Shown here piece after piece: positions 1 through 48,836 of a stretch of DNA of 64,000 bases (position 1 is the first letter of the stretch; each line of letters opens with the position of its first letter). Below the pieces are notes generated by a model that was given only the letters and a program-made list of their open reading frames with translations, was not told the origin of the DNA and made no database searches. The DNA lies in assembly GCA_020845875.1 (NCBI GenBank), contig JADLEY010000009.1, positions 3,907 through 67,906 on the forward strand. Direction: 5' to 3'. Source of the DNA: Candidatus Nomurabacteria bacterium (lineage in GTDB: Bacteria > Patescibacteriota > Minisyncoccia > Phycocordibacterales > UBA9973). Position numbers and translations under genes: made by a program.

Positions 1-1592
1 CAGGATCTCTTAACTTCACTGGAGCATTTACCGTCAGTGGTAATGCTGGGACGGTAGGGCAGGTGCTGACTTCTGCTGGAGGGGGTGCACCAACATGGAA
101 CAATATTACTAACGTTGTTTCTTTTAATCAGGCAACTCAATCTCTTTATTCTTCCACACCTATTCTTGCAGCAAGCTCTGGGAATTCAAACGATATATTT
201 CTTGGCCCTTTTGCAGGAATCGGTGCTTCTGGTACTCACGAATCAGTTTTTATAGGGAATTCTGCCGGATATGGTGCTGCTACTGCGAATGACTCCATAT
301 TCTTTGGAGATCACGCAGGATATAATGCAACTTTAGCTTCTAATTCTCAATTCATTGGTGAAGGTGCAGGATGGGGAGCATCTGGTGCGGATAATTCTAA
401 TTTTTTTGGATATTATGCGGGATCAGGAGCAATAAATTCAAGATATTCTAACTTTTTTGGACAATCTGCAGGAAGGGATTCTAACGCCTATAACTCTAAT
501 TTTTTTGGATATTATGCAGGAAATAGTGCTACTGGAGCACAGCACTCCAATTTCTTTGGAGAATATGCTGGTAATGCTGCCACCAACGCCTCATACTCCA
601 ACCTCTTTGGATATCGTGCAGGAGCACTTTTCATTGGTAACAATATAGGTTCCAACAACATCATCATCGGCACCAATATCTCTCTTCCCAACGGAACAGC
701 GAATGCCATTAACATAGGAGGAGTACTTTTTGGCACCAACACTCAAGATAATGTTTTAATGGGAGATCCCTTCATCACTCCACAGACTTCTGGAAAAATC
801 GGCATCGCTACCATCCCTACCACCTATACCTTAGAGGTCGGAAACAGTTCTGTGGGTGGCATCATCGCCTCCTTTACCAACAGTGCAAACACTTGTACTA
901 TCGACACGTCACTCTCTTGTACTTCAGATGAAAGACTTAAAACCAACATCGAAGATCTAGACGATAATACACTCGATAAACTTCTTGACGTGAGAACAGT
1001 GAGATTCAGCTGGCTCAAAGATCCTTCTGCACCAGAACAAATAGGCTTCCTTGCTCAAGACCTCAAACAATACTTCCCAGAGATTGTCTCCAAAGGTCCC
1101 AATGACTACTACCAAGTCAACTACGCGGGTATGACCCCCATCCTCACCAAAGCAATACAAGAGCTTGATATACGGGTCTCCGACATTTCGTCGCTGACCG
1201 AAGACTCGACTTTTGCTGATACGCTTCGCGCATGGCTTGCCAATGCGGGCAATCGTGTCACGCGCATCTTTACTGGCGAAGTGTGTCTCTCTGATGAGGA
1301 GGGGAGCACCTGTCTCAATCGCGGTGAATTGATGCAGCTCAAGACACTCCTTGGAACGCAGGGTGACAATACACTCGTTGATGACGAGATAGGAGAAGAT
1401 GTCCCAGAAACGTCAGAGGAATCAATGGTGCTGTCAGGGGACACTGACGGCACAGCGGGAGAACAGGCTCCCGAAGAAGGTGTTTCAGAAAATATACCAA
1501 CCTCACAAGAAGAGCCTGCCACCGTCTCTCCTGTGTCTGCCGAAGAGGCTGCCCCAGCACCAGAAGCTTCTGTACCGGCAGATACTGTGTAG
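1..1592 (+). CDS. Repeat-rich secreted/surface protein with a C-terminal peptidase-S74-like intramolecular chaperone (autoproteolytic) domain. It is 5'-partial: the frame is open back to the window edge.
   Basis: Gly/Ala/Asn-rich ~16-aa repeats (NFFGYYAG, SNFFGEYAG). C-terminal 'CTSDERLKTNIEDL...IGFLAQDL...VNYAGMTPILTKAIQEL' matches the S-D-x-R-x-K self-cleaving chaperone domain of phage tail-spike/endosialidase proteins. It is a paralog of the 16971-19577 protein. Confidence 0.6.
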   Translation, partial: GSLNFTGAFTVSGNAGTVGQVLTSAGGGAPTWNNITNVVSFNQATQSLYSSTPILAASSGNSNDIFLGPFAGIGASGTHESVFIGNSAGYGAATANDSIFFGDHAGYNATLASNSQFIGEGAGWGASGADNSNFFGYYAGSGAINSRYSNFFGQSAGRDSNAYNSNFFGYYAGNSATGAQHSNFFGEYAGNAATNASYSNLFGYRAGALFIGNNIGSNNIIIGTNISLPNGTANAINIGGVLFGTNTQDNVLMGDPFITPQTSGKIGIATIPTTYTLEVGNSSVGGIIASFTNSANTCTIDTSLSCTSDERLKTNIEDLDDNTLDKLLDVRTVRFSWLKDPSAPEQIGFLAQDLKQYFPEIVSKGPNDYYQVNYAGMTPILTKAIQELDIRVSDISSLTEDSTFADTLRAWLANAGNRVTRIFTGEVCLSDEEGSTCLNRGELMQLKTLLGTQGDNTLVDDEIGEDVPETSEESMVLSGDTDGTAGEQAPEEGVSENIPTSQEEPATVSPVSAEEAAPAPEASVPADTV

Positions 1593-2616: not shown

Positions 2617-3318
2617 GTGATATACTATGACCACGTTGTTATGATTACATTTACGAATGTCTCAAAAGTATATCCCAATGGAGCGATCGCATTGGAAGGG
2701 GTGACGCTCACAATAGAAAAAGGGGAGTTTGTTACAATGATTGGCCTCTCTGGTGCCGGAAAGACTACGCTCACCAAACTCCTTTTAGGGGAGGAACAGC
2801 CGACTGAAGGAGACGTGCTCTTTGAAGGGAGAGATGTAACGACTTTTTCTGTGAAAGAGCTCACCGATCTGCGTCGTCGCATCGGGCCTATTTTCCAGGA
2901 TTTCAGATTACTTGCACATAAGACCGCTTATGAAAACATTTCGTGTGCGATGGAGGCGGCAGGGAAGACTGACGAAGAGATTATTTCCGATGTTCCTCAT
3001 GTCCTGCAGCTCGTCGATTTGCAAGACCGTATGTACCATTTCCCTAGTCAGCTTTCAGGAGGAGAAAAGCAGCGTCTTGCGATTGCGCGTGCCATTATCA
3101 ATCAACCCGAAGTACTTCTTGCTGACGAACCAACGGGTAATCTCGATTCAGTAAATACCGAGGAGGTGCTCAATATATTGAGAAAAATTAATGATCTCGG
3201 AACCACTGTTATCCTTGCGACACATGATCCGCAGCTCATAAATGGGCTCGGGGGACGTCTCATTACTGTCGAGAAGGGGAAGATTGTCAAAGACGAACAG
3301 CATCGTCGTAAGATATAA
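2617..3318 (+). CDS. ftsE: Cell-division ABC ATPase FtsE
   Basis: Walker A GLSGAGKTT, ABC signature LSGGEKQRLAIARA, Walker B LLADEPTGNLD. Immediately followed by ftsX. Confidence 0.9.
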   Translation: MIYYDHVVMITFTNVSKVYPNGAIALEGVTLTIEKGEFVTMIGLSGAGKTTLTKLLLGEEQPTEGDVLFEGRDVTTFSVKELTDLRRRIGPIFQDFRLLAHKTAYENISCAMEAAGKTDEEIISDVPHVLQLVDLQDRMYHFPSQLSGGEKQRLAIARAIINQPEVLLADEPTGNLDSVNTEEVLNILRKINDLGTTVILATHDPQLINGLGGRLITVEKGKIVKDEQHRRKI

Positions 3319-3326
3319 TAAAGCAT

Positions 3327-4250
3327 ATGTTTTGGACTACTTTCAAACGAGTATTGGAATCAGGATGGATTAATTTCCGCAGAAACGGCCTAGTTTCTTA
3401 TGCAGCTATCCTTGTCACGACGATTACGCTTACGGTGATTACAGGACTTTTTCTTCTCAACGCCATACTACATACTACTATCGACAGTATTCAAAAGCAG
3501 GTAGATATTACTGTTTATTTTACGGTAGATGCGCAAGAAGAACGTATTCTTTCGCTCAAACAAACGCTCGAGTCGCTTCCTGAGGTCGCTGCGGTAGGGT
3601 ACATTTCTGCAGATGACGAAGTGCTCGCTTTTCGCGAGCGTCACTCAGACGACTACCTTACTCTGCAGGCGCTCGAAGAGCTCGGCAACAACCCATTTGG
3701 AGGCAATCTCCGTATTAGTGCGCACGACTCTACGCAGTATGAATCTATCGTGAATGTCCTCGAAGGCGACAGTCAGGTAGCGCGTGATAATGCAGAAATC
3801 ATTGATCGCATCAATTTTGCACAAAATAAAGTCGTCATCGATCGACTCAATCGGCTCATTGCGGACTCTCGGGATATCGGACTTATCGTCACCATTATCC
3901 TTTCGTTTATCTCAGTGATTATTATGTTTACGACAGTGCGACTGACTATCTATGTCGTCCATGAAGAAATTGGTATTATGCGTCTCGTGGGTGCTTCAAA
4001 TTCGTATATTAGACTCCCGTTCATTGTCGAAGGAATACTTTACGGTTTCTTTGCATGGACCCTTACTTTCCTTCTTTTTCTCCCTATCACCTATCTGCTC
4101 GGACGATATGCTACTGATGCGCTTGGTCTCAATCTCTACACTTACTACCTCTCACATTTCTTCTCTATTGCTGGAGTAGTGCTTCTCATCGGACTCTTTT
4201 TAGGAGCGCTCTCAAGTGCGTTTGCTGTCCGCAAGTATCTCCGTTCGTAG
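3327..4250 (+). CDS. ftsX: Cell-division permease FtsX
   Basis: N-terminal TM helix, periplasmic domain and C-terminal 3-TM FtsX-like permease region. Adjacent to ftsE. Confidence 0.85.
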   Translation: MFWTTFKRVLESGWINFRRNGLVSYAAILVTTITLTVITGLFLLNAILHTTIDSIQKQVDITVYFTVDAQEERILSLKQTLESLPEVAAVGYISADDEVLAFRERHSDDYLTLQALEELGNNPFGGNLRISAHDSTQYESIVNVLEGDSQVARDNAEIIDRINFAQNKVVIDRLNRLIADSRDIGLIVTIILSFISVIIMFTTVRLTIYVVHEEIGIMRLVGASNSYIRLPFIVEGILYGFFAWTLTFLLFLPITYLLGRYATDALGLNLYTYYLSHFFSIAGVVLLIGLFLGALSSAFAVRKYLRS

Positions 4251-4283
4251 TCGTTGATTTTTTGTTGAAAAAACGTTATTCTG

Positions 4284-4316
4284 ACACACGCTTGTAAAGG
4301 CGTGTGTTCTGTTTCG
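4284..4316 (+). terminator. Hairpin acacacgc-ttgtaaag-gcgtgtgt followed by a T-rich tract, downstream of ftsX
   Basis: Perfect 8-bp inverted repeat seen in the sequence. Confidence 0.45.
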
Positions 4317-4336
4317 AAATTGTTCGTAGATAGCGC

Positions 4337-4407
4337 TGCCAGATCGTCTAATGGTAGGACTACAGATTCTGGCTCTGTGTATCTAGGTTCGAGTCCTAGT
4401 CTGGCAG
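4337..4407 (+). tRNA. tRNA-Gln (anticodon CTG)
   Basis: Acceptor tgccaga/tctggca (U1:A72), D-arm gtc-taatggtag-gac, anticodon stem acaga/tctgt with loop ttCTGgc, T-arm ctagg-ttcgagt-cctag. CCA not encoded. Confidence 0.8.
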
Positions 4408-4481
4408 CACTGCATGGGAACAATCTTGAGACAGCAAACGAAAACCCCTTCCAAAAGCGGAAGGGGTAAGGCAAAAAGTTA

Positions 4482-5138
4482 CTATGATAGAACACTTTCC
4501 ATCATCTTGCGCAAGTTCTTCAATCCCAGGTACATCCTAGTCTGTATTGTGTTGATAGAAATGGTACTGTCAATGCATTCAGTAATTTTTCGAAAAGTAC
4601 ACCTCTTAAAAAGATGAAGGTAGATCACTTCACGTTGTTCTGCAGGGATTCTTTCTAATAATTCTGGAATAACACGCAGGCTCTCTCTACGGATGAACGT
4701 TTCTTCAGGGCCTTGTTCAATGTAGATAGGACAGATAGAGTGGGTAAGGAGATCAATATCTTCTGAGGCATAATACCAAGTGGATTTCTTTTTGAAACCC
4801 CCTCTTACATGGTCAATCGCCAGGTTGCACACAATTCTTCTTATCCATGCTCGAAATGCATGTTTGCTGTCCATATGATATTTTCCTTCTTTAATAGCAA
4901 TAATTGCCTTGATAAAGGCTTCTTGAAGAATATCCTCAGTAAGGTGTAAGTCTTGTACAATAGGGAATACCACCGAAGCTAAGTAGGGTTGGTGTCGTTT
5001 AACAATGACGTTAAATGCTTCAGAATTTCCTGCTGCAAATTGCAAAACAAGAGTGTAATCATCGAGGGAATAAAGGTTTTTGTTCATATTTATTTTTTTT
5101 AAAAGAATGAAAGAAATGTAGTGGTAACGAGCCACCAA
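4482..5138 (-). CDS. ECF-type RNA polymerase sigma factor (sigma-70 regions 2 and 4). Probable true start at the internal MNKNLY...
   Basis: Region 2.2-like RAWIRRIVCNLAIDHVR and region 4 HTH REVIYLHLF...ISINTIQTRMYLGLKNLRK. Confidence 0.7.
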   Translation of the reverse strand: MVARYHYISFILLKKINMNKNLYSLDDYTLVLQFAAGNSEAFNVIVKRHQPYLASVVFPIVQDLHLTEDILQEAFIKAIIAIKEGKYHMDSKHAFRAWIRRIVCNLAIDHVRGGFKKKSTWYYASEDIDLLTHSICPIYIEQGPEETFIRRESLRVIPELLERIPAEQREVIYLHLFKRCTFRKITECIDSTISINTIQTRMYLGLKNLRKMMESVLS

Positions 5139-5227
5139 TACTCTGTCGACGCTATAACATAAAATTTTATAAAAGTCCAGTATCTCTTTTCTTAAAGAGA
5201 AAGAAGGGGTGGTATACTAGAAAGCAT

Positions 5228-5941
5228 ATGAAGAAAACACCTGTTATTGTTACCGTCCTTACGCTTCTTATTATTGGACTTCTTTTTATTCAGTCACGCC
5301 ATGATGCTACGAAAGCAACACGACCGATTGTTGCTGTTTTTACTGATCAACAGACGCAGCAAGTAGCGACCGTTTCTTTTGACAATACTACTCAGACTGC
5401 GACGCTCGATGGTGCAGGGTATCAAGGACTCGTATTTACACAAGACATATCAGCCTCTGGTGCACGATATATAAATAATGAAAACAATCTCGTGCTCTGG
5501 AATAAAGGAAATGATATTACCCTGTACGACTCTACTGGGAAATCACTCTTCAATGGAACGAGTGCTGCTGCAGATACGACAGGTACATCAACTGTGAAAG
5601 CGCTCTCTGAATCAGTATGGGTATGGCAGAGTACTGTGCTTGCCAATGGAGATACTATTGCTCCACGAGAAGCAGGAGCATTCGCTCTTACTTTTGGCAC
5701 TGACGGGCGTATCTCAGGGACAACAGATTGTAATAGTTTCTCTGGTTCATACTCAATAGGAGAGGGACAATCGCTTGCTTTTGGTACTTTTGCTGCAACG
5801 AAAATGTTTTGTATGAATTCTCAGGAAGAGGTCTTTACTCAAGATGTCTCGAGGAGTGTCGGATACTCTTTTTCTGATGCAGACTCCCTCGTGCTTGTTC
5901 TTGGAGGAGACGCTGGGGTAATGACTTTTGCAAAGCGCTAG
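5228..5941 (+). CDS. Membrane-anchored/secreted protein with an MliC-like N-terminal half and a META/HslJ-like C-terminal half
   Basis: N-terminal TM/signal MKKTPVIVTVLTLLIIGLLF. SGARYINNENNLVLWNKG resembles the MliC lysozyme-inhibitor fold. CNSFSGSYSIGEGQSLAFGTFAATKMFC resembles DUF306/META. Confidence 0.45.
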   Translation: MKKTPVIVTVLTLLIIGLLFIQSRHDATKATRPIVAVFTDQQTQQVATVSFDNTTQTATLDGAGYQGLVFTQDISASGARYINNENNLVLWNKGNDITLYDSTGKSLFNGTSAAADTTGTSTVKALSESVWVWQSTVLANGDTIAPREAGAFALTFGTDGRISGTTDCNSFSGSYSIGEGQSLAFGTFAATKMFCMNSQEEVFTQDVSRSVGYSFSDADSLVLVLGGDAGVMTFAKR

Positions 5942-6010
5942 ACAATTGTTCTCTCTGATTGTCTATGGTATAATCACTGGGTTATTTACCAATAATAACA
6001 ATACGACACT

Positions 6011-26647: not shown

Positions 26648-26679
26648 TCGCACCTACTTTCGATAACCCTAAAAATCCC

Positions 26680-26700
26680 CTGGGAACAGGGGATTTTTAG
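26680..26700 (+). terminator. Rho-independent terminator after rpoC
   Basis: aaaaatcccctgggaacaggggattttt. Confidence 0.7.
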
Positions 26701-26705
26701 GTGCT

Positions 26706-26735
26706 TGACAAGAATATGAATATTTGCTATACTCT
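26706..26735 (+). promoter_or_regulatory. Sigma-70-like promoter TTGACA-N17-TATACT
   Basis: Consensus hexamers 200 bp upstream of dnaG. Confidence 0.55.
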
Positions 26736-26952
26736 TCTCAAGTTCATCAATATTTCCTCGTGTTTCAGAAAGAGAACCGCAAAAGGCAATATTGTACATT
26801 GAATTACGCTGATTGAGCTTTTACTCAATCGAACGGCCTTGGCGGAGCAATAATTCGCGAGAATCTTTCAACCTTAACCCCCATACCTTTTGTATGGGGG
26901 TTTCTCTTCTTTTTGACTTCCGGCGGGCAATTCTCTACTATCTAGCTTACTG

Positions 26953-32181: not shown

Positions 32182-32871
32182 ATGCGACAATGGGGGAAAT
32201 ATCTGATAGTGCTTTTGCTAACTTGCGGAATCTTCGCTATTTCGTGGTATGTGAGCTCGTATTTTAGCGGCAAAAAAATCGCCGAAATCCGCGATATCCA
32301 AAACAAGATTGCCGTCGATATCCTCTCGTCAGAGACACAGTATTCGCTTCTCGAAGAACTCTCCTGCAGCGACATCAATAGCTCGATTATTTCTGATGAG
32401 CTGCTCACGCTTGCAGATCGCATCACCTACAGCGAACAAAATCTCTCCGAGCAGGACGATGTGCTTCTCCTTAAAAAGCAGTACACCATGCTGCAGGTCA
32501 AAGACTTTCTCCTCAAAAAGCGCATCAGCGAACGTTGCAAGACACCGTTTACTGCTATTCTTTACTTCTACGGTACCAAGCAAAATTGCGCCGACTGCGA
32601 ACGGCAGGGCTATGTGCTCGATGCTGCACGGGCAAAGTATCCTGAGCTGCGTATCTATTCATACGACTACAATCTCGACCTCTCGACGATTCGCGCGCTT
32701 CGCTCTATCTACAAAGTAGACGAGCCGCTGCCAGTACTTGTTATCAACAGTAAAACGCAGAGCGGATTTAAGACCCTCGAAGAGATAGAAGCTCTCCTGC
32801 CAAAAGACTTCATCAAACGCTCACAGGCCCAGGCACAAGCTGCCGCAGAGGCAAAGGAAGAAAAGAAATAA
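32182..32871 (+). CDS. Hypothetical membrane-anchored protein
   Basis: N-terminal TM, C-x2-C (CADCERQG), Ala/Gln/Lys-rich C-terminus. Confidence 0.35.
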   Translation: MRQWGKYLIVLLLTCGIFAISWYVSSYFSGKKIAEIRDIQNKIAVDILSSETQYSLLEELSCSDINSSIISDELLTLADRITYSEQNLSEQDDVLLLKKQYTMLQVKDFLLKKRISERCKTPFTAILYFYGTKQNCADCERQGYVLDAARAKYPELRIYSYDYNLDLSTIRALRSIYKVDEPLPVLVINSKTQSGFKTLEEIEALLPKDFIKRSQAQAQAAAEAKEEKK

Positions 32872-33446
32872 AACTGGAGTATCTTTATGACACTGCTAGA
32901 ACTTACTTTATCAAAAATTCGTGAGAATATCCAATCTCGCACATCCGTGCGCTAAAGCGCCTCTGTGCGAAGCACAGAGCTTTTCCAAAGGAAAAGAACG
33001 GAATGTGCGAATACAAATGCGGACTCGGTTTTGCGAAGCAATTTTGCGGGAGGAGGATTCGCAAAACCGAGACTAATTTTTTGAAAAGTTTTTTGGGCTG
33101 GGCTTCCGCCCCGCAGGAGGGTGCGGGAGGAATGCGGGGCGGGATTTCGGAATTTTTGGCGGGCGGGCATTAAGAATTCAAGATACATCTATTGAAATTT
33201 TGGCAAAGCCAAAATACGAAGTTAGTTTGTGTTTACCCCACCCACCCGTGCGTACACAAGATTGCTCCCTACTATGGATAAAAAAGACAAAAAATGCTAA
33301 AATATTCTCCCTCCTTGGCGAAAAACAGGTGCGCGCAAGCGCGCCCGCATTTCCGAATTCCCCCGCAGAATCAGGGCAAACACAGTGGGACGCGCTTCGC
33401 GCGTCCCACCATTTAGCATCTTCCGAACCATTTTGTTCGTTTAGGG

Positions 33447-33520
33447 AGCCAGAAGTCGGGCTCGAACCGACGACCACCCGTTTACAAAACGGGAGCTCTA
33501 CCAACTGAGCTATTCTGGCA
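33447..33520 (-). tRNA. tRNA-Thr (anticodon TGT)
   Basis: On the minus strand: acceptor gccagaa/ttctggc, D-arm agctcagttggtagagc, anticodon loop ttTGTaa on stem cccgt/acggg, T-arm ggtcg-ttcgagcc-cgact. Confidence 0.8.
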
Positions 33521-33546
33521 TTGGCTACATAGTAGCCGATATTGAA

Positions 33547-33948
33547 CTAAATTTCCACCCCTGTAGTTTCTGAAGTTTTCTTTCTTCGTACCACGCGTTT
33601 TTTTTCTTCGCGCTCTGAAATCGAACGGAGGAAGTATGACGAGGGACCGTGTGAAAATCCTGCAAGCTCGTCTTTTTTGGTAAATGCTTCCTTGGCGTCA
33701 GGGAAGATGGTAAAGAATGCGCGACCCGCTTTTTGCTGTACCCATGATGCCGCTTTTTGCGTCTGTATCTGTGCTTGGTACCAGCCGCGGCGTGCGAGTC
33801 GAGCGCCTTGTTCTGCCGAACGCTGCGCGTCGGCAAGTGTCAGTGGTGTCTCAGGCACCCCTTGATCCTTTTTCCACCACAGGTACATATATGCTACCCA
33901 TGAAAGGAGAGCGAAGGTGATGAGTGCGATGACAAGGAAGGTAATCAT
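33547..33948 (-). CDS. Hypothetical small membrane protein
   Basis: N-terminal TM helix (MITFLVIALITFALLSWVAYMYLWW) followed by a basic/charged tail. Confidence 0.3.
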   Translation of the reverse strand: MITFLVIALITFALLSWVAYMYLWWKKDQGVPETPLTLADAQRSAEQGARLARRGWYQAQIQTQKAASWVQQKAGRAFFTIFPDAKEAFTKKDELAGFSHGPSSYFLRSISEREEKKRVVRRKKTSETTGVEI

Positions 33949-38486: not shown

Positions 38487-39219
38487 TAAACGTCCATCAG
38501 TATCTTTCTTTTCTTTTGTCCTGCGTGCAACGGGTGTTATCCTTGCGGTGCTGGCACTTTTTTTTATACTTCAAAAAGTGGTAGGCAAAGTGCCGCTCCC
38601 TTCGCTTCACTCAGACGATGTACGCTCAGCGCTTTCATCTAAACGCGTACTCATCGCGCACATAGATGAACTCGAAAACACCCTCGCTGGTATGAAGGCA
38701 CTCTCCGACCAGCAATCACTTCTGCAGGAAGAAAACGATGCGCTCAAAGCGGAGCTTGGCCGCGGCCAAGCTCCGCATGGCACTCTCGCTCGTGTCCTCA
38801 CTATGCCGAGCCGAAGTTTCTATGACACTCTGCTCATAGATGCCGGTGAGGCAGAAGGCATCACCGAAGGGCAGAGCGTGTTTGCTTTTGATGCCGTCGC
38901 CATCGGCACCATTTCGTCAGTAGAGACGCATCGTGCCACCGTGCAGCTTTTTAGTGCTCCAGGGAGAGAGACGACTGGCAATGCAGAAGGCAGTGATGTA
39001 GCCATCACACTCATCGGACGCGGCGGCGGAGAATACGAGGTGCGCATGCCGCGCGATTTACCGTTTGCGATTGGCGAGAGCGTCTCGCTCCAGTCGGTAC
39101 ATATGGCGACGCTGGCAACCATTGAAAAGATCATCACTGACCCGCGTGATCCCTTTCAGCGCCTCTTGGCAAAAGTACCAGTCAATCTCAATGCGCTTAA
39201 GTTTGTGGTAGTACGATAG
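38473..39219 (+). CDS. mreC: Rod-shape protein MreC (internal Met start; the ORF-track start at 38293 overlaps mreB)
   Basis: TM anchor, coiled coil (LENTLAGMKALSDQQSLLQEENDALKAEL), then the MreC beta-domain. Confidence 0.7.
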   Translation: MPYRNKRPSVSFFSFVLRATGVILAVLALFFILQKVVGKVPLPSLHSDDVRSALSSKRVLIAHIDELENTLAGMKALSDQQSLLQEENDALKAELGRGQAPHGTLARVLTMPSRSFYDTLLIDAGEAEGITEGQSVFAFDAVAIGTISSVETHRATVQLFSAPGRETTGNAEGSDVAITLIGRGGGEYEVRMPRDLPFAIGESVSLQSVHMATLATIEKIITDPRDPFQRLLAKVPVNLNALKFVVVR

Positions 39220-48397: not shown

Positions 48398-48415
48398 AAT
48401 TTTAAGTCTTGCGTT

Positions 48416-48447
48416 ATGATAGCATGTATCTTATGATTCGTCAAGAG
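48416..48447 (-). promoter_or_regulatory. Promoter-core copy 1 (minus strand TTGACG-N17-TATCAT); the + strand carries the uvrC-start remnant ATGATTCGTCAAGAGAAATAA
   Basis: + strand 48431-48447 ttatgattcgtcaagag; −10 reverse complement at 48416-48421; −35 reverse complement at 48439-48444. Confidence 0.55.
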
Positions 48448-48451
48448 AAAT

Positions 48452-48485
48452 AAAAACTGCGTTAGGTCTTGCCTAACGCAGTTTT
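48452..48485 (-). terminator. Bidirectional hairpin terminator H1 (ctgcgttagg-tcttg-cctaacgcag) flanked by A5/T4
   Basis: 10-bp perfect stem. On the minus strand it is followed by ttttatttctc, and it ends the 49-aa TM-protein gene. Confidence 0.65.
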
Positions 48486-48555
48486 GCTTTGCTCTTTCTG
48501 TATCTGTATTTTTCAGCCAAATCGTATAAAGATTGGCACAACAACATAACAAGCG

Positions 48556-48705
48556 TCACGAGCAGCCAAAAATATATCCTGATAGGATTGCTAACAGCGG
48601 ATTTACAGAGATAGCCGCGATAGCACAAATGACGCAAGTGATTGGCCAAATACAGAATAGGTAACCCGCAAAGACGAATACTTTTACAAAGTTATACCAT
48701 TTCAT
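48556..48705 (-). CDS. Hypothetical 49-aa Cys-rich two-TM micro-protein (not in the ORF track because it is under 60 aa)
   Basis: Hand-translated MKWYNFVKVFVFAGYLFCIWPITCVICAIAAISVNPLLAILSGYIFGCS. Bracketed by promoter copy 2 and terminator H1. Confidence 0.35.
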   Translation of the reverse strand: MKWYNFVKVFVFAGYLFCIWPITCVICAIAAISVNPLLAILSGYIFGCS

Positions 48706-48722
48706 TTTTTAAGTTTTGTGAT

Positions 48723-48754
48723 ACTATACTGCCTATATTATGATTCGTCAAGAT
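48723..48754 (-). promoter_or_regulatory. Promoter-core copy 2 (minus strand TTGACG-N17-TATAGT)
   Basis: + strand 48738-48754 ttatgattcgtcaagat; −10 reverse complement 48723-48728. Confidence 0.5.
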
Positions 48755-48800
48755 TTAAAAAAACTCTTACCTTACGTCCTCTTGCAAATCAAAAACCTGA

Positions 48801-48836
48801 TATACTCAAACTATGCTATCGCGCAAAATGAGTATA
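48801..48836. repeat. 36-bp palindrome copy U (TATACTCA-aactatGCTATCGCgcaaaa-TGAGTATA) overlapping the start codon(s) of the wHTH::Cas2-like gene
   Basis: Perfect 8-bp outer inverted arms. A second direct copy is at 49338-49373. Confidence 0.6.

Follow-up and report, generated by a model that had tools for sequence, protein, structure and literature searches.

A spacer beside tRNA-Thr in a Candidatus Nomurabacteria genome: a probable remnant of a serine-recombinase island with a covarying structured element

What fills the longest gap in a tightly packed stretch of Patescibacteria DNA? In the 64,000 nucleotides (nt) of Candidatus Nomurabacteria contig JADLEY010000009.1 analysed here (positions 3,907 to 67,906; the window), 573 bp (32872-33444) lie between a + strand open reading frame (ORF) of 229 amino acids (aa; 32182-32871) and the - strand gene for tRNA-Thr(TGT). 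A reading made from the letters alone (the sequence-only reading) had picked out this spacer as unusually long, hairpin-dense and GC-rich, and had offered it as a possible uncharacterised small RNA (sRNA) or an array of regulator-binding sites. It is indeed the longest gap of the window, the runner-up measuring 415 bp, and it folds better than 100 of 100 dinucleotide shuffles on both strands (z = -5.70 for the + strand and -6.07 for the - strand). Its local GC content, 0.43-0.56 against a window mean of 0.48, does not bear out the third property. Our answer is that 32880-33444 is very probably, to judge from its sequence and that of its relatives, what decay has left of a small integrative island, of the large serine recombinase (LSR) type, at the 3' end of tRNA-Thr(TGT), and that its left part is one copy of a covarying structured element.

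A strain-variable segment with a recombinase remnant

A contig of the sister strain L001, found through the identical 229-aa protein that it encodes, matches the window in blastn with 100% identity up to 32879 and, at 98.8%, again from 33445. It lacks exactly 32880-33444, and just 3 nt separate its stop codon from the tRNA end. At both junctions of the variable segment stands GGAG. The encoded 3' end of tRNA-Thr reads ..GGCU-CCC in the window, against ..GGCU-CCA in the empty site of L001. In a third sample the contig (L003) stops exactly at 32879, as expected where two alleles coexist. Moreover, the site between the 229-aa homologue and tRNA-Thr is an insertion hot spot: in farther relatives the flank of the tRNA is empty (L007) or holds a gene for an MFS transporter (L008) or an HNH endonuclease (L019), a 142-aa ORF (L020) or 465 nt of unrelated non-coding DNA (L018). 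The spacer is a 565-bp strain-variable indel, and neither a stable host locus nor a housekeeping RNA locus; the lesson for annotation is that it should not be labelled a host sRNA gene.

The right part of the segment holds the 3' end of an LSR gene. In tblastn with the intact recombinases of L035, L118, L096 and L111, 33272-33472 matches their C-termini at 44-54% identity over 60-77 aa (best match 54% over 70 aa, E 4e-14) and continues past 33444, antisense, into tRNA-Thr. Relatives have the same layout, the last ~70 codons of their LSR genes lying antisense to the tRNA 'trailer' and running on into the T-arm (..VGLEPT). Intact relatives are 512-531 aa long, carry the Pfam domains Resolvase, Recombinase and Zn_ribbon_recom (shown in L118, L111 and L061) and match the serine integrases of A118 and SPbeta. 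The body of the LSR gene is absent from the window by tblastn, as is any intact ORF with the Resolvase, Recombinase and zinc-ribbon domains. None of the ORFs at 32952-33188 (-), 33003-33173 (+), 33178-33504 (-) and 33200-33508 (+) has a Pfam hit. Since only the C-terminal ~70 residues survive, with no Pfam domain, 33272-33472 is a pseudogene remnant and not a gene.

Because 33272-33472 translates as an LSR C-terminus, two of the four inverted repeats that the sequence-only reading had listed fall inside recombinase sequence. GCGCGC-AA-GCGCGC, whose position at 33331-33344 was right, consists of VRASAP codons, and the 11-bp palindrome consists of WDALRAS codons; the latter is real and reads GTGGGACGCGC-TTC-GCGCGTCCCAC at 33385-33395 / 33399-33409, with a loop of 3 nt and not of 2. 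All the other repeats that had been listed exist as well, at coordinates shifted by 1-7 nt. The perfect 14-bp inverted repeat, given earlier as 33025-33072, lies at 33024-33037 / 33058-33071, and CCGCCCCGCA / TGCGGGGCGG, given as 33099-33135, lies at 33106-33115 / 33133-33142. The recurring hexamers stand at 32966, 33006 and 33032 (TGCGAA) and at 33058 (TTCGCA) instead of 32959, 33005, 33036 and 33055; these four copies compare with 0.28 expected at the window rate. The two palindromes of the remnant are also found in the recombinases of L035, L061 and L111, where VRASAP and WDALRAS are kept at the protein level. Their opposite strand resembles terminators of the adjacent tRNA, and they would at most be terminators for it.

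One copy of a covarying structured element

The left part of the segment runs from 32880 to ~33170, with a further module X that extends to ~33270. It represents a single copy of an element that at least 120 metagenome contigs carry. To recruit copies, an exact 23-mer of the central hairpin was used; many of its matches sit at contig ends, and the Hainich groundwater data sets are rich in copies. All matches share one order of parts: a leader of ~55 nt comes first, a four-way junction and an A-rich linker come next, and a long hairpin, T runs, a second hairpin and a GGCGGGCGGGC tail follow (Table 1). A covariance model built on 29 copies (R1) finds exactly one copy in the window (169.6 bits, E 6e-47). 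Across the 89 distinct copies from which pairing statistics were taken, 94.4% of the modelled cells are paired, against 34-57% with slid partners, and 35 of the 45 modelled pairs show changes on both sides; none of 500 shuffles reaches the observed values. The covariation in relatives, by which the sequence-only reading had proposed to judge its candidate, is present. Double changes occur in 12 of the 12 pairs of the outer stem of the four-way junction and in 6 of the 7 pairs of its third hairpin, and compensatory changes in 13 of the 14 stem pairs of the long hairpin. In L010, a relative with 93% identity, an 86%-identical copy of 32874-33023 lies in another context and shows one such change, from CTTTTCC/GGAAAAG to CTTTTGC/GCAAAAG.

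Table 1. Features of the spacer, and putative attachment sites (a slash within a site marks the join)
Feature	Position or contig	Strand	Basis or remark
Left junction core GGAG (attL-type), host flank / element start	32876-32879		Same 4 bp at right junction, 33445-33448
Strain-variable segment, 565 bp	32880-33444		In window, absent from sister strain L001 (blastn)
Element leader	32880-32936	+	Stands where the tRNA stands at the recombinase 3' end in other loci
Four-way junction	32937-33010	+	Outer stem 32937-32948 / 32998-33010; hairpins 32949-32960, 32961-32979, 32980-32996
Long hairpin, 14-bp stem, conserved ~20-nt purine-rich loop ..UUUUGCGGGAGGAGGAUU	33024-33071	+	Compensatory stem changes
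Second hairpin, stem TTCCGCCCCGC / GCGGGGCGGGA, conserved loop AGGAGGGUGCGGGAGGAAU	33104-33144	+	Hairpin scan
G-rich tail GGCGGGCGGGC	33159-33169	+	End of family-wide conserved core
Module X	33170-33270	+	Common to ~10-13 other copies
3' remnant of LSR gene, last ~70 codons, ..KIFSLLGEKQVRASAPAFPNSPAESGQTQWDALRASHHLASSEPFCSFREPEVGLEPT	33272-33472	+	tblastn
tRNA-Thr(TGT), integration target (putative attB B' half)	33445-33519	-	ARAGORN and Rfam; junction sequences
attB	L001		AAAACTGGAG / CCAGAAG
attL	window		AAAACTGGAG / TATCTTT
attR	window		GTTTAGGGAG / CCAGAAG
attP-like	L078		GTTTAGGGAG / TATCTTT
Predicted junction word, circle/attP			GTTCGTTTAGGGAGTATCTTTATGAC
Junction word, empty attB			AAATAAAACTGGAGCCAGAAGTCGG

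Within the four-way junction, the hairpin at 32961-32979 contains the invariant 23-mer core. T runs follow the long hairpin on its 3' side at 33077-33082 and 33090-33095. Family-wide, the loop of the second hairpin reads AGGAGGG(G)U(C/G)(U/C)GGG(G)AGGAAU, and among the 54 candidate stem-loops of a hairpin scan, which have 44 distinct 5' arms, most are this hairpin, with the loop kept and the arms varying. Coverage among copies in blastn falls beyond ~33165. Module X forms a hairpin (33197-33204 / 33208-33215) and a stem (33227-33232 / 33254-33259) around the C-rich loop CCCCACCCACCC, and its copies include compensatory variants, ATTTTGGC/GCCAAAAT against ATCTCGGC/GCCGAGAT and TTGTGT/ACACAA against TTGTGC/GCACAA.

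The sequence-only reading had seen no motifs of RNase P, transfer-messenger RNA (tmRNA) or signal recognition particle (SRP) RNA, and Rfam 15 agrees, giving no match in the spacer at gathering score and, at E<=10, only chance-level matches (E 1.7-9.6) far under the gathering scores. Over 32700-33700 the tRNA alone scores among all the families of Rfam 15, which include RNase P, tmRNA, SRP, 6S, ROOL, GOLLD, HEARO and riboswitches; the other matches stay far under gathering (E 0.26-9.6). Nor does Rfam 15 match the element copies of L023, L087 and L138. Because it combines compensatory variation with no Rfam match, the left ~290-390 nt is a genuine candidate for an uncharacterised structured element; this much of the proposed 'uncharacterised sRNA' holds up, and what falls is its place as a stable host locus. 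In the published literature we found no description of the element or of the islands that carry it. Blastn of the element against phage and plasmid collections gave no match, and neither did exact-word scans of viral contigs with three words, the 23-mer among them. The element model also has no match in the other long inter-ORF gaps of the window, at 26648-26952 (305 bp), 38487-38819 (333 bp) and 48398-48812 (415 bp).

Two small features touch the ends of the element. At 32888-32956 (+), the leader overlaps a 22-codon ORF, MTLLELTLSKIRENIQSRTSVR, with GGAG 8 nt upstream; it is probably not a gene, since its ATG reads ATA in the homologous sequence of L010. At the other end, 3' of the GGCGGGCGGGC tail, many copies (e.g. 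L138 at ~350-385, L100, L101, L035 and L051) have a conserved extended -10 box, TGnTAAAAT, with the ATG of the next gene 6-9 nt on. This spacing suggests leaderless mRNAs for the cargo, and such an inward promoter at the end of many copies could drive it. The counterpart of the box in the window, TGCTAAAAT at 33295-33303, lies within the LSR remnant.

A simpler account of the spacer would be that it holds the intrinsic terminators of the + strand operon and of the - strand tRNA, with filler between. A terminator scan does flag 33344-33331 on the - strand, the palindrome at 33385-33409 is followed there by UGUGUUUG, and T runs stand behind the long and the second hairpin on the + strand. Terminator-like sites are, however, no more numerous than in shuffles, L001 makes do with 3 nt at this place, and the four-way junction, the conservation in at least 120 contigs and the recombinase remnant would all stay unexplained. 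This highly improbable account is largely refuted.

Other mobile elements were considered as well. The thought that the element derives from an IS110-family insertion, lacks its transposase and encodes a bridge (seek) RNA came from an insertion of ~1.8 kb with a Transposase_20 protein right after the 229-aa homologue in L010, L011 and L014. In L010 it occupies 3691-5505, directly past the stop codon, and encodes a 56-aa ORF besides the Transposase_20 protein; the site is empty in L016 and L017. This insertion shares no sequence with the element of the window (the sole element match in L010 is at 5809-5960), the window has no DEDD/Transposase_20 recombinase, and the partner of the element across loci is a serine recombinase. 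The idea is scarcely credible, and was dropped because the L010 insertion is unrelated in sequence. An IS200/IS605-type element or a miniature inverted-repeat transposable element was rejected too: there are no terminal inverted repeats, no similar subterminal hairpins and no target duplication, and the ends are unrelated. The 64 kb hold a single copy, and the paired copies in L138 lack a duplication.

Further ideas were discarded. For a - strand tRNA-like or tmRNA-like gene ending in CCA, the shared 'trailer' proved to be recombinase coding sequence, and no T-arm could be drawn. The 7-bp acceptor-like pairing of 5' and 3' ends that the window shows (33186-33180 with 32885-32879) lacks conservation. 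Nor is there support for a helix that would close the structure by joining the A-rich leader to the T run behind the long hairpin, since self pairs (mean 7.17 nt) do no better than cross pairs (6.97 nt). A paper on group I introns in tRNA genes of Patescibacteria was unrelated.

Putative attachment sites and proposed island architecture

For the Thr lineage, one crossover in GGAG is enough to relate all four sites of Table 1, which come from L001, L078 and the window. In a second lineage the shared bases are TGGTG: the LSR end of L134 reads ..GTTTCGTA / TGGTG / element, and L091 reads ..GTTTCGTT / TGGTG / tRNA-Ser. We infer that crossover takes place within GGAG, and within TGGTG in other lineages. 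The outer ~30 nt of the leader, GGAG-TATCTTTATGACACTGCTA-GAACT, look like the reverse complement of a tRNA 3' end (CCA end, T-loop GAACC), and the leader pattern is TGGNG followed by GAAC(C/T). In 5 of 5 lineages (L035, L061, L096, L118 and window/L078), the distance from the junction to a GGTTC/AGTTC motif is 30 nt in the element, against 26 nt in the tRNA. The sites of A118-type integrases are reportedly offset by ~5 bp, the zinc ribbon making its contact farther out in attP than in attB (the 2013 work of Rutherford and colleagues behind PDB 4KIS is said to describe this). Because the motif sits 4 nt farther out in the leader, as in A118-type geometry, the tRNA 3' end would be the attB half-site and the first ~30 nt of the element the attP half-site (P'), a mimic of the tRNA end; the motif itself would mark the zinc-ribbon contact.

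The adjacency of LSR genes, tRNA 3' ends and the element recurs in relatives. Among the loci listed, tblastn places LSR homologues beside the element in 28 of ~120. The leader end of the element is always the recombinase-proximal end, in two arrangements: one co-directional, recombinase then TGGTG then element (L109, L132, L134 and L111), and one divergent, in which an inverted extra LSR C-terminus separates the two (L035, L061, L096, L118 and others). At its opposite end the recombinase gene borders on a tRNA gene for Ser, Leu, Val or Arg, and within one genome the same LSR-end sequence abuts both tRNAs and elements. Clustering of neighbour genes found no single conserved partner family and no conserved neighbouring host gene; the recombinase, missed there, was found by tblastn. 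Several copies of the element occur in other genomes, often as inverted pairs around accessory genes. Such pairs enclose a DpnII restriction-modification system, an ABC transporter, a P-type ATPase, a PEP-utilising enzyme, or a set of C39 peptidase, nucleotidyltransferase and GrpB. In the syntenic locus L078/L139, the order is tRNA-Thr, LSR remnants, an element pointing inward, three cargo genes, an inverted element and the 229-aa homologue.

An intact island would then have the following plan: the tRNA gene; the LSR gene, its 3' end running antisense into the tRNA; a first element copy pointing toward the accessory cargo; a second, pointing back at it; and host DNA. Given the fuller island in L078/L139, the window would keep only the last ~70 LSR codons at the tRNA and the distal element copy at the host 229-aa gene. 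Its LSR body, proximal element copy and cargo would have been lost.

The recombinase ends of these loci show further rearrangements. The recombinase gene is flanked by inverted copies (at least 160 bp) of its own 3' end, one at the tRNA and one at the element, in L035 (4967-6871), L061 (2003-3946), L096 (87-2035) and L118 (4389-6319); in L111 (2001-3724) it has the reverse orientation. The latter suggests an invertible recombinase segment, for which a simple attP/attB model has no explanation. In L092 (~770-810) and L026 (~3068-3108), the tRNA and the element converge on a perfect 41-nt palindrome, AAACGAACTAAATGGCTTTTTCAAAGCCATTTAGTTCGTTT, in which the last recombinase codons occur twice, in inverted orientation; it may be a footprint of recombinase loss. 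In L087, two matches to the Rfam DUF805b motif, at 1454-1489 (+) and 747-781 (-), score 38.9 and 34.4 bits (gathering 35.6); they lie in the cargo between two inverted elements. On the host side, the 229-aa protein of the window has no Pfam domain and more than 1,100 homologues, a few of them named glutaredoxin by JGI, and a CxxC-like motif, KQNCADCE.

Could the element still be one or more independent, trans-acting sRNA genes of the host, with the link to the recombinase incidental? The strong covariation of the four-way junction and hairpins would suit such genes, as would the A-rich and purine-rich loops and UGAA/CUUG-type tetraloops of the + strand, the T runs behind the long hairpin and a possible -35/-10 pair in the leader; for many copies, moreover, there is no recombinase on the contig. 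Against this, the element is absent from the near-identical strain L001, it occurs elsewhere in multiple copies that often form inverted pairs around accessory genes, it has no conserved neighbouring host gene, and what its outer end faces is in every case a recombinase gene, the remnant of one or an insertion junction. We regard a host sRNA as quite unlikely.

Taken as a whole, the island-remnant reading is probably the best explanation of the locus. Several points weigh against it. The alignment that shows covariation was fitted to the model, and recruitment by an exact 23-mer makes the central hairpin look invariant by construction. The L001 allele could be a deletion across a 4-bp microhomology. 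In the host-side (B) arm of attB, no half-site for the recombinase can be recognised. With no intact LSR in the 64 kb, recent mobility would need one in trans. The commonest arrangement, in which the element faces the start of the LSR gene across an inverted extra LSR C-terminus, is not predicted by the simple attP model. The first gene past the element has the same orientation in 31 of 70 cases and the opposite one in 39, a split on which the idea that the element is the 5' leader of the next gene was also dropped. Two more points concern the structured core. Its purine-rich and A-rich loops, T runs and mismatches favour the + strand of the window only weakly, and a role as RNA and a role at the DNA level both appear possible.

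Roles of the structured core and comparison with known systems

The core consists of a four-way junction and two hairpins whose loops are purine-rich, and the + strand of the window may be transcribed into it as an RNA; whether it acts as RNA we hold to be an evenly balanced question. In the mismatches, G.T and A.C stand at 56:75 over the whole model, at 29:18 in the better-aligned helices and at 29:7 in the second hairpin, there mostly in outer pairs.

The serious rival to an RNA is a DNA-level element: operators, cruciforms or folded single-stranded DNA that serve as accessory sites for the recombinase or a partner, or as structures for uptake or transfer. It owes its seriousness to perfect palindromes with 3-4-nt loops and to three GCGAAGC motifs. 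The heptamer d(GCGAAGC) forms an unusually stable DNA mini-hairpin. The junction has almost no unpaired nucleotides, the central 19-bp palindrome keeps its sequence as well as its pairing, G.T mismatches are about as frequent as A.C ones, as though neither strand were favoured, and the element lies directly beside the putative att site. Yet the outer stem, the third hairpin and the long hairpin change sequence freely while keeping their pairing, a behaviour that suits a folded single strand better than it does protein operators, and the conserved purine-rich loops are strand-asymmetric. Serine integrases are also not known to require accessory DNA of this kind. On balance we consider a DNA-level role unlikely.

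If the core is an RNA of the island, its position hints at what it might do. In the excised circle its place would be immediately 3' of the LSR gene, on the far side of attP, and integration would part them. This makes it plausible that, in the manner of lambda sib, it regulates or stabilises the recombinase transcript in cis, and by this analogy the core might exert sib-like control of the recombinase, a role that we think doubtful. With somewhat more sympathy, and still tentatively, one may ask whether the ~300-400-nt element represents a new class of large structured RNA that is integral to tRNA-targeting serine-integrase islands in Patescibacteria. As such it could be a cis regulator that reports the integrated or excised state, an RNA partner of the recombinase, or a tRNA-end mimic that forms attP and new landing sites.

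Little is known of how genes are exchanged among the Patescibacteria (the candidate phyla radiation), whose genomes are tiny. The locus described here points to very small serine-integrase islands that land at the CCA end of many tRNA genes, with a cargo of restriction-modification systems, transporters and further accessory genes enclosed by two element copies. If so, the element, which breaks many assemblies, would be a practical marker of island boundaries in metagenomes. The tRNA-mimicking attP would be a clear example of a serine integrase using a universally conserved target, and the structured core a new candidate for control of integration and excision at the RNA level.

Among known systems, the large non-coding RNAs ROOL and GOLLD come to mind, since they too are conserved multi-helix regions of several hundred nt near tRNA genes in mobile contexts. 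Unlike them, the element has no Rfam match, almost perfect stems and few unpaired nucleotides that are conserved; it comes from Patescibacteria-type contigs, and as an RNA it is a candidate. The likeness to lambda sib is positional: in L109, L132, L134 and L111 the element stands directly downstream of the recombinase ORF, across the putative crossover, and integration would separate them. RNase III processing belongs to sib and forms no part of the comparison; the element is far larger than sib, and many copies, unlike sib, are divergent from any recombinase or distant from it. Tyrosine-integrase islands at tRNA genes (Islander-type) share the strain-variable presence at a tRNA gene and a cargo that includes restriction-modification systems and transporters. 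They differ in the enzyme, here a serine recombinase, and in the displaced tRNA fragment: neither a tyrosine integrase nor a direct repeat of a tRNA 3' fragment was found at this locus, where only 4 bp are shared. The crossover here, moreover, would fall at or after the CC of the CCA end and leave the tRNA body untouched.

The closest parallel is with serine-integrase elements (Listeria phage A118, SPbeta SprA, phiC31, Bxb1 and the TnpX/TndX transposons). As in these, the proteins of the relatives combine Resolvase, Recombinase and zinc-ribbon domains, the recombinase gene stands at the edge of the element by the junction, what the junctions have in common is a few bases (GGAG or TGGTG) and no long repeats, and the motif on the attP side lies 4 bp farther from the centre than that on the attB side, much like the ~5-bp offset reportedly described for A118-type sites. 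What sets the present islands apart is their target, the extreme 3' end (CCA) of tRNA genes, with Thr, Arg, Leu, Val and Ser all used, and an attP half-site that mimics the tRNA end. Their recombinase ORF ends inside the tRNA, antisense, its C-terminus is often duplicated and inverted, and a ~300-nt covarying element adjoins attP and recurs beyond the cargo. With these differences, the islands form a variant type among the known serine-integrase elements.

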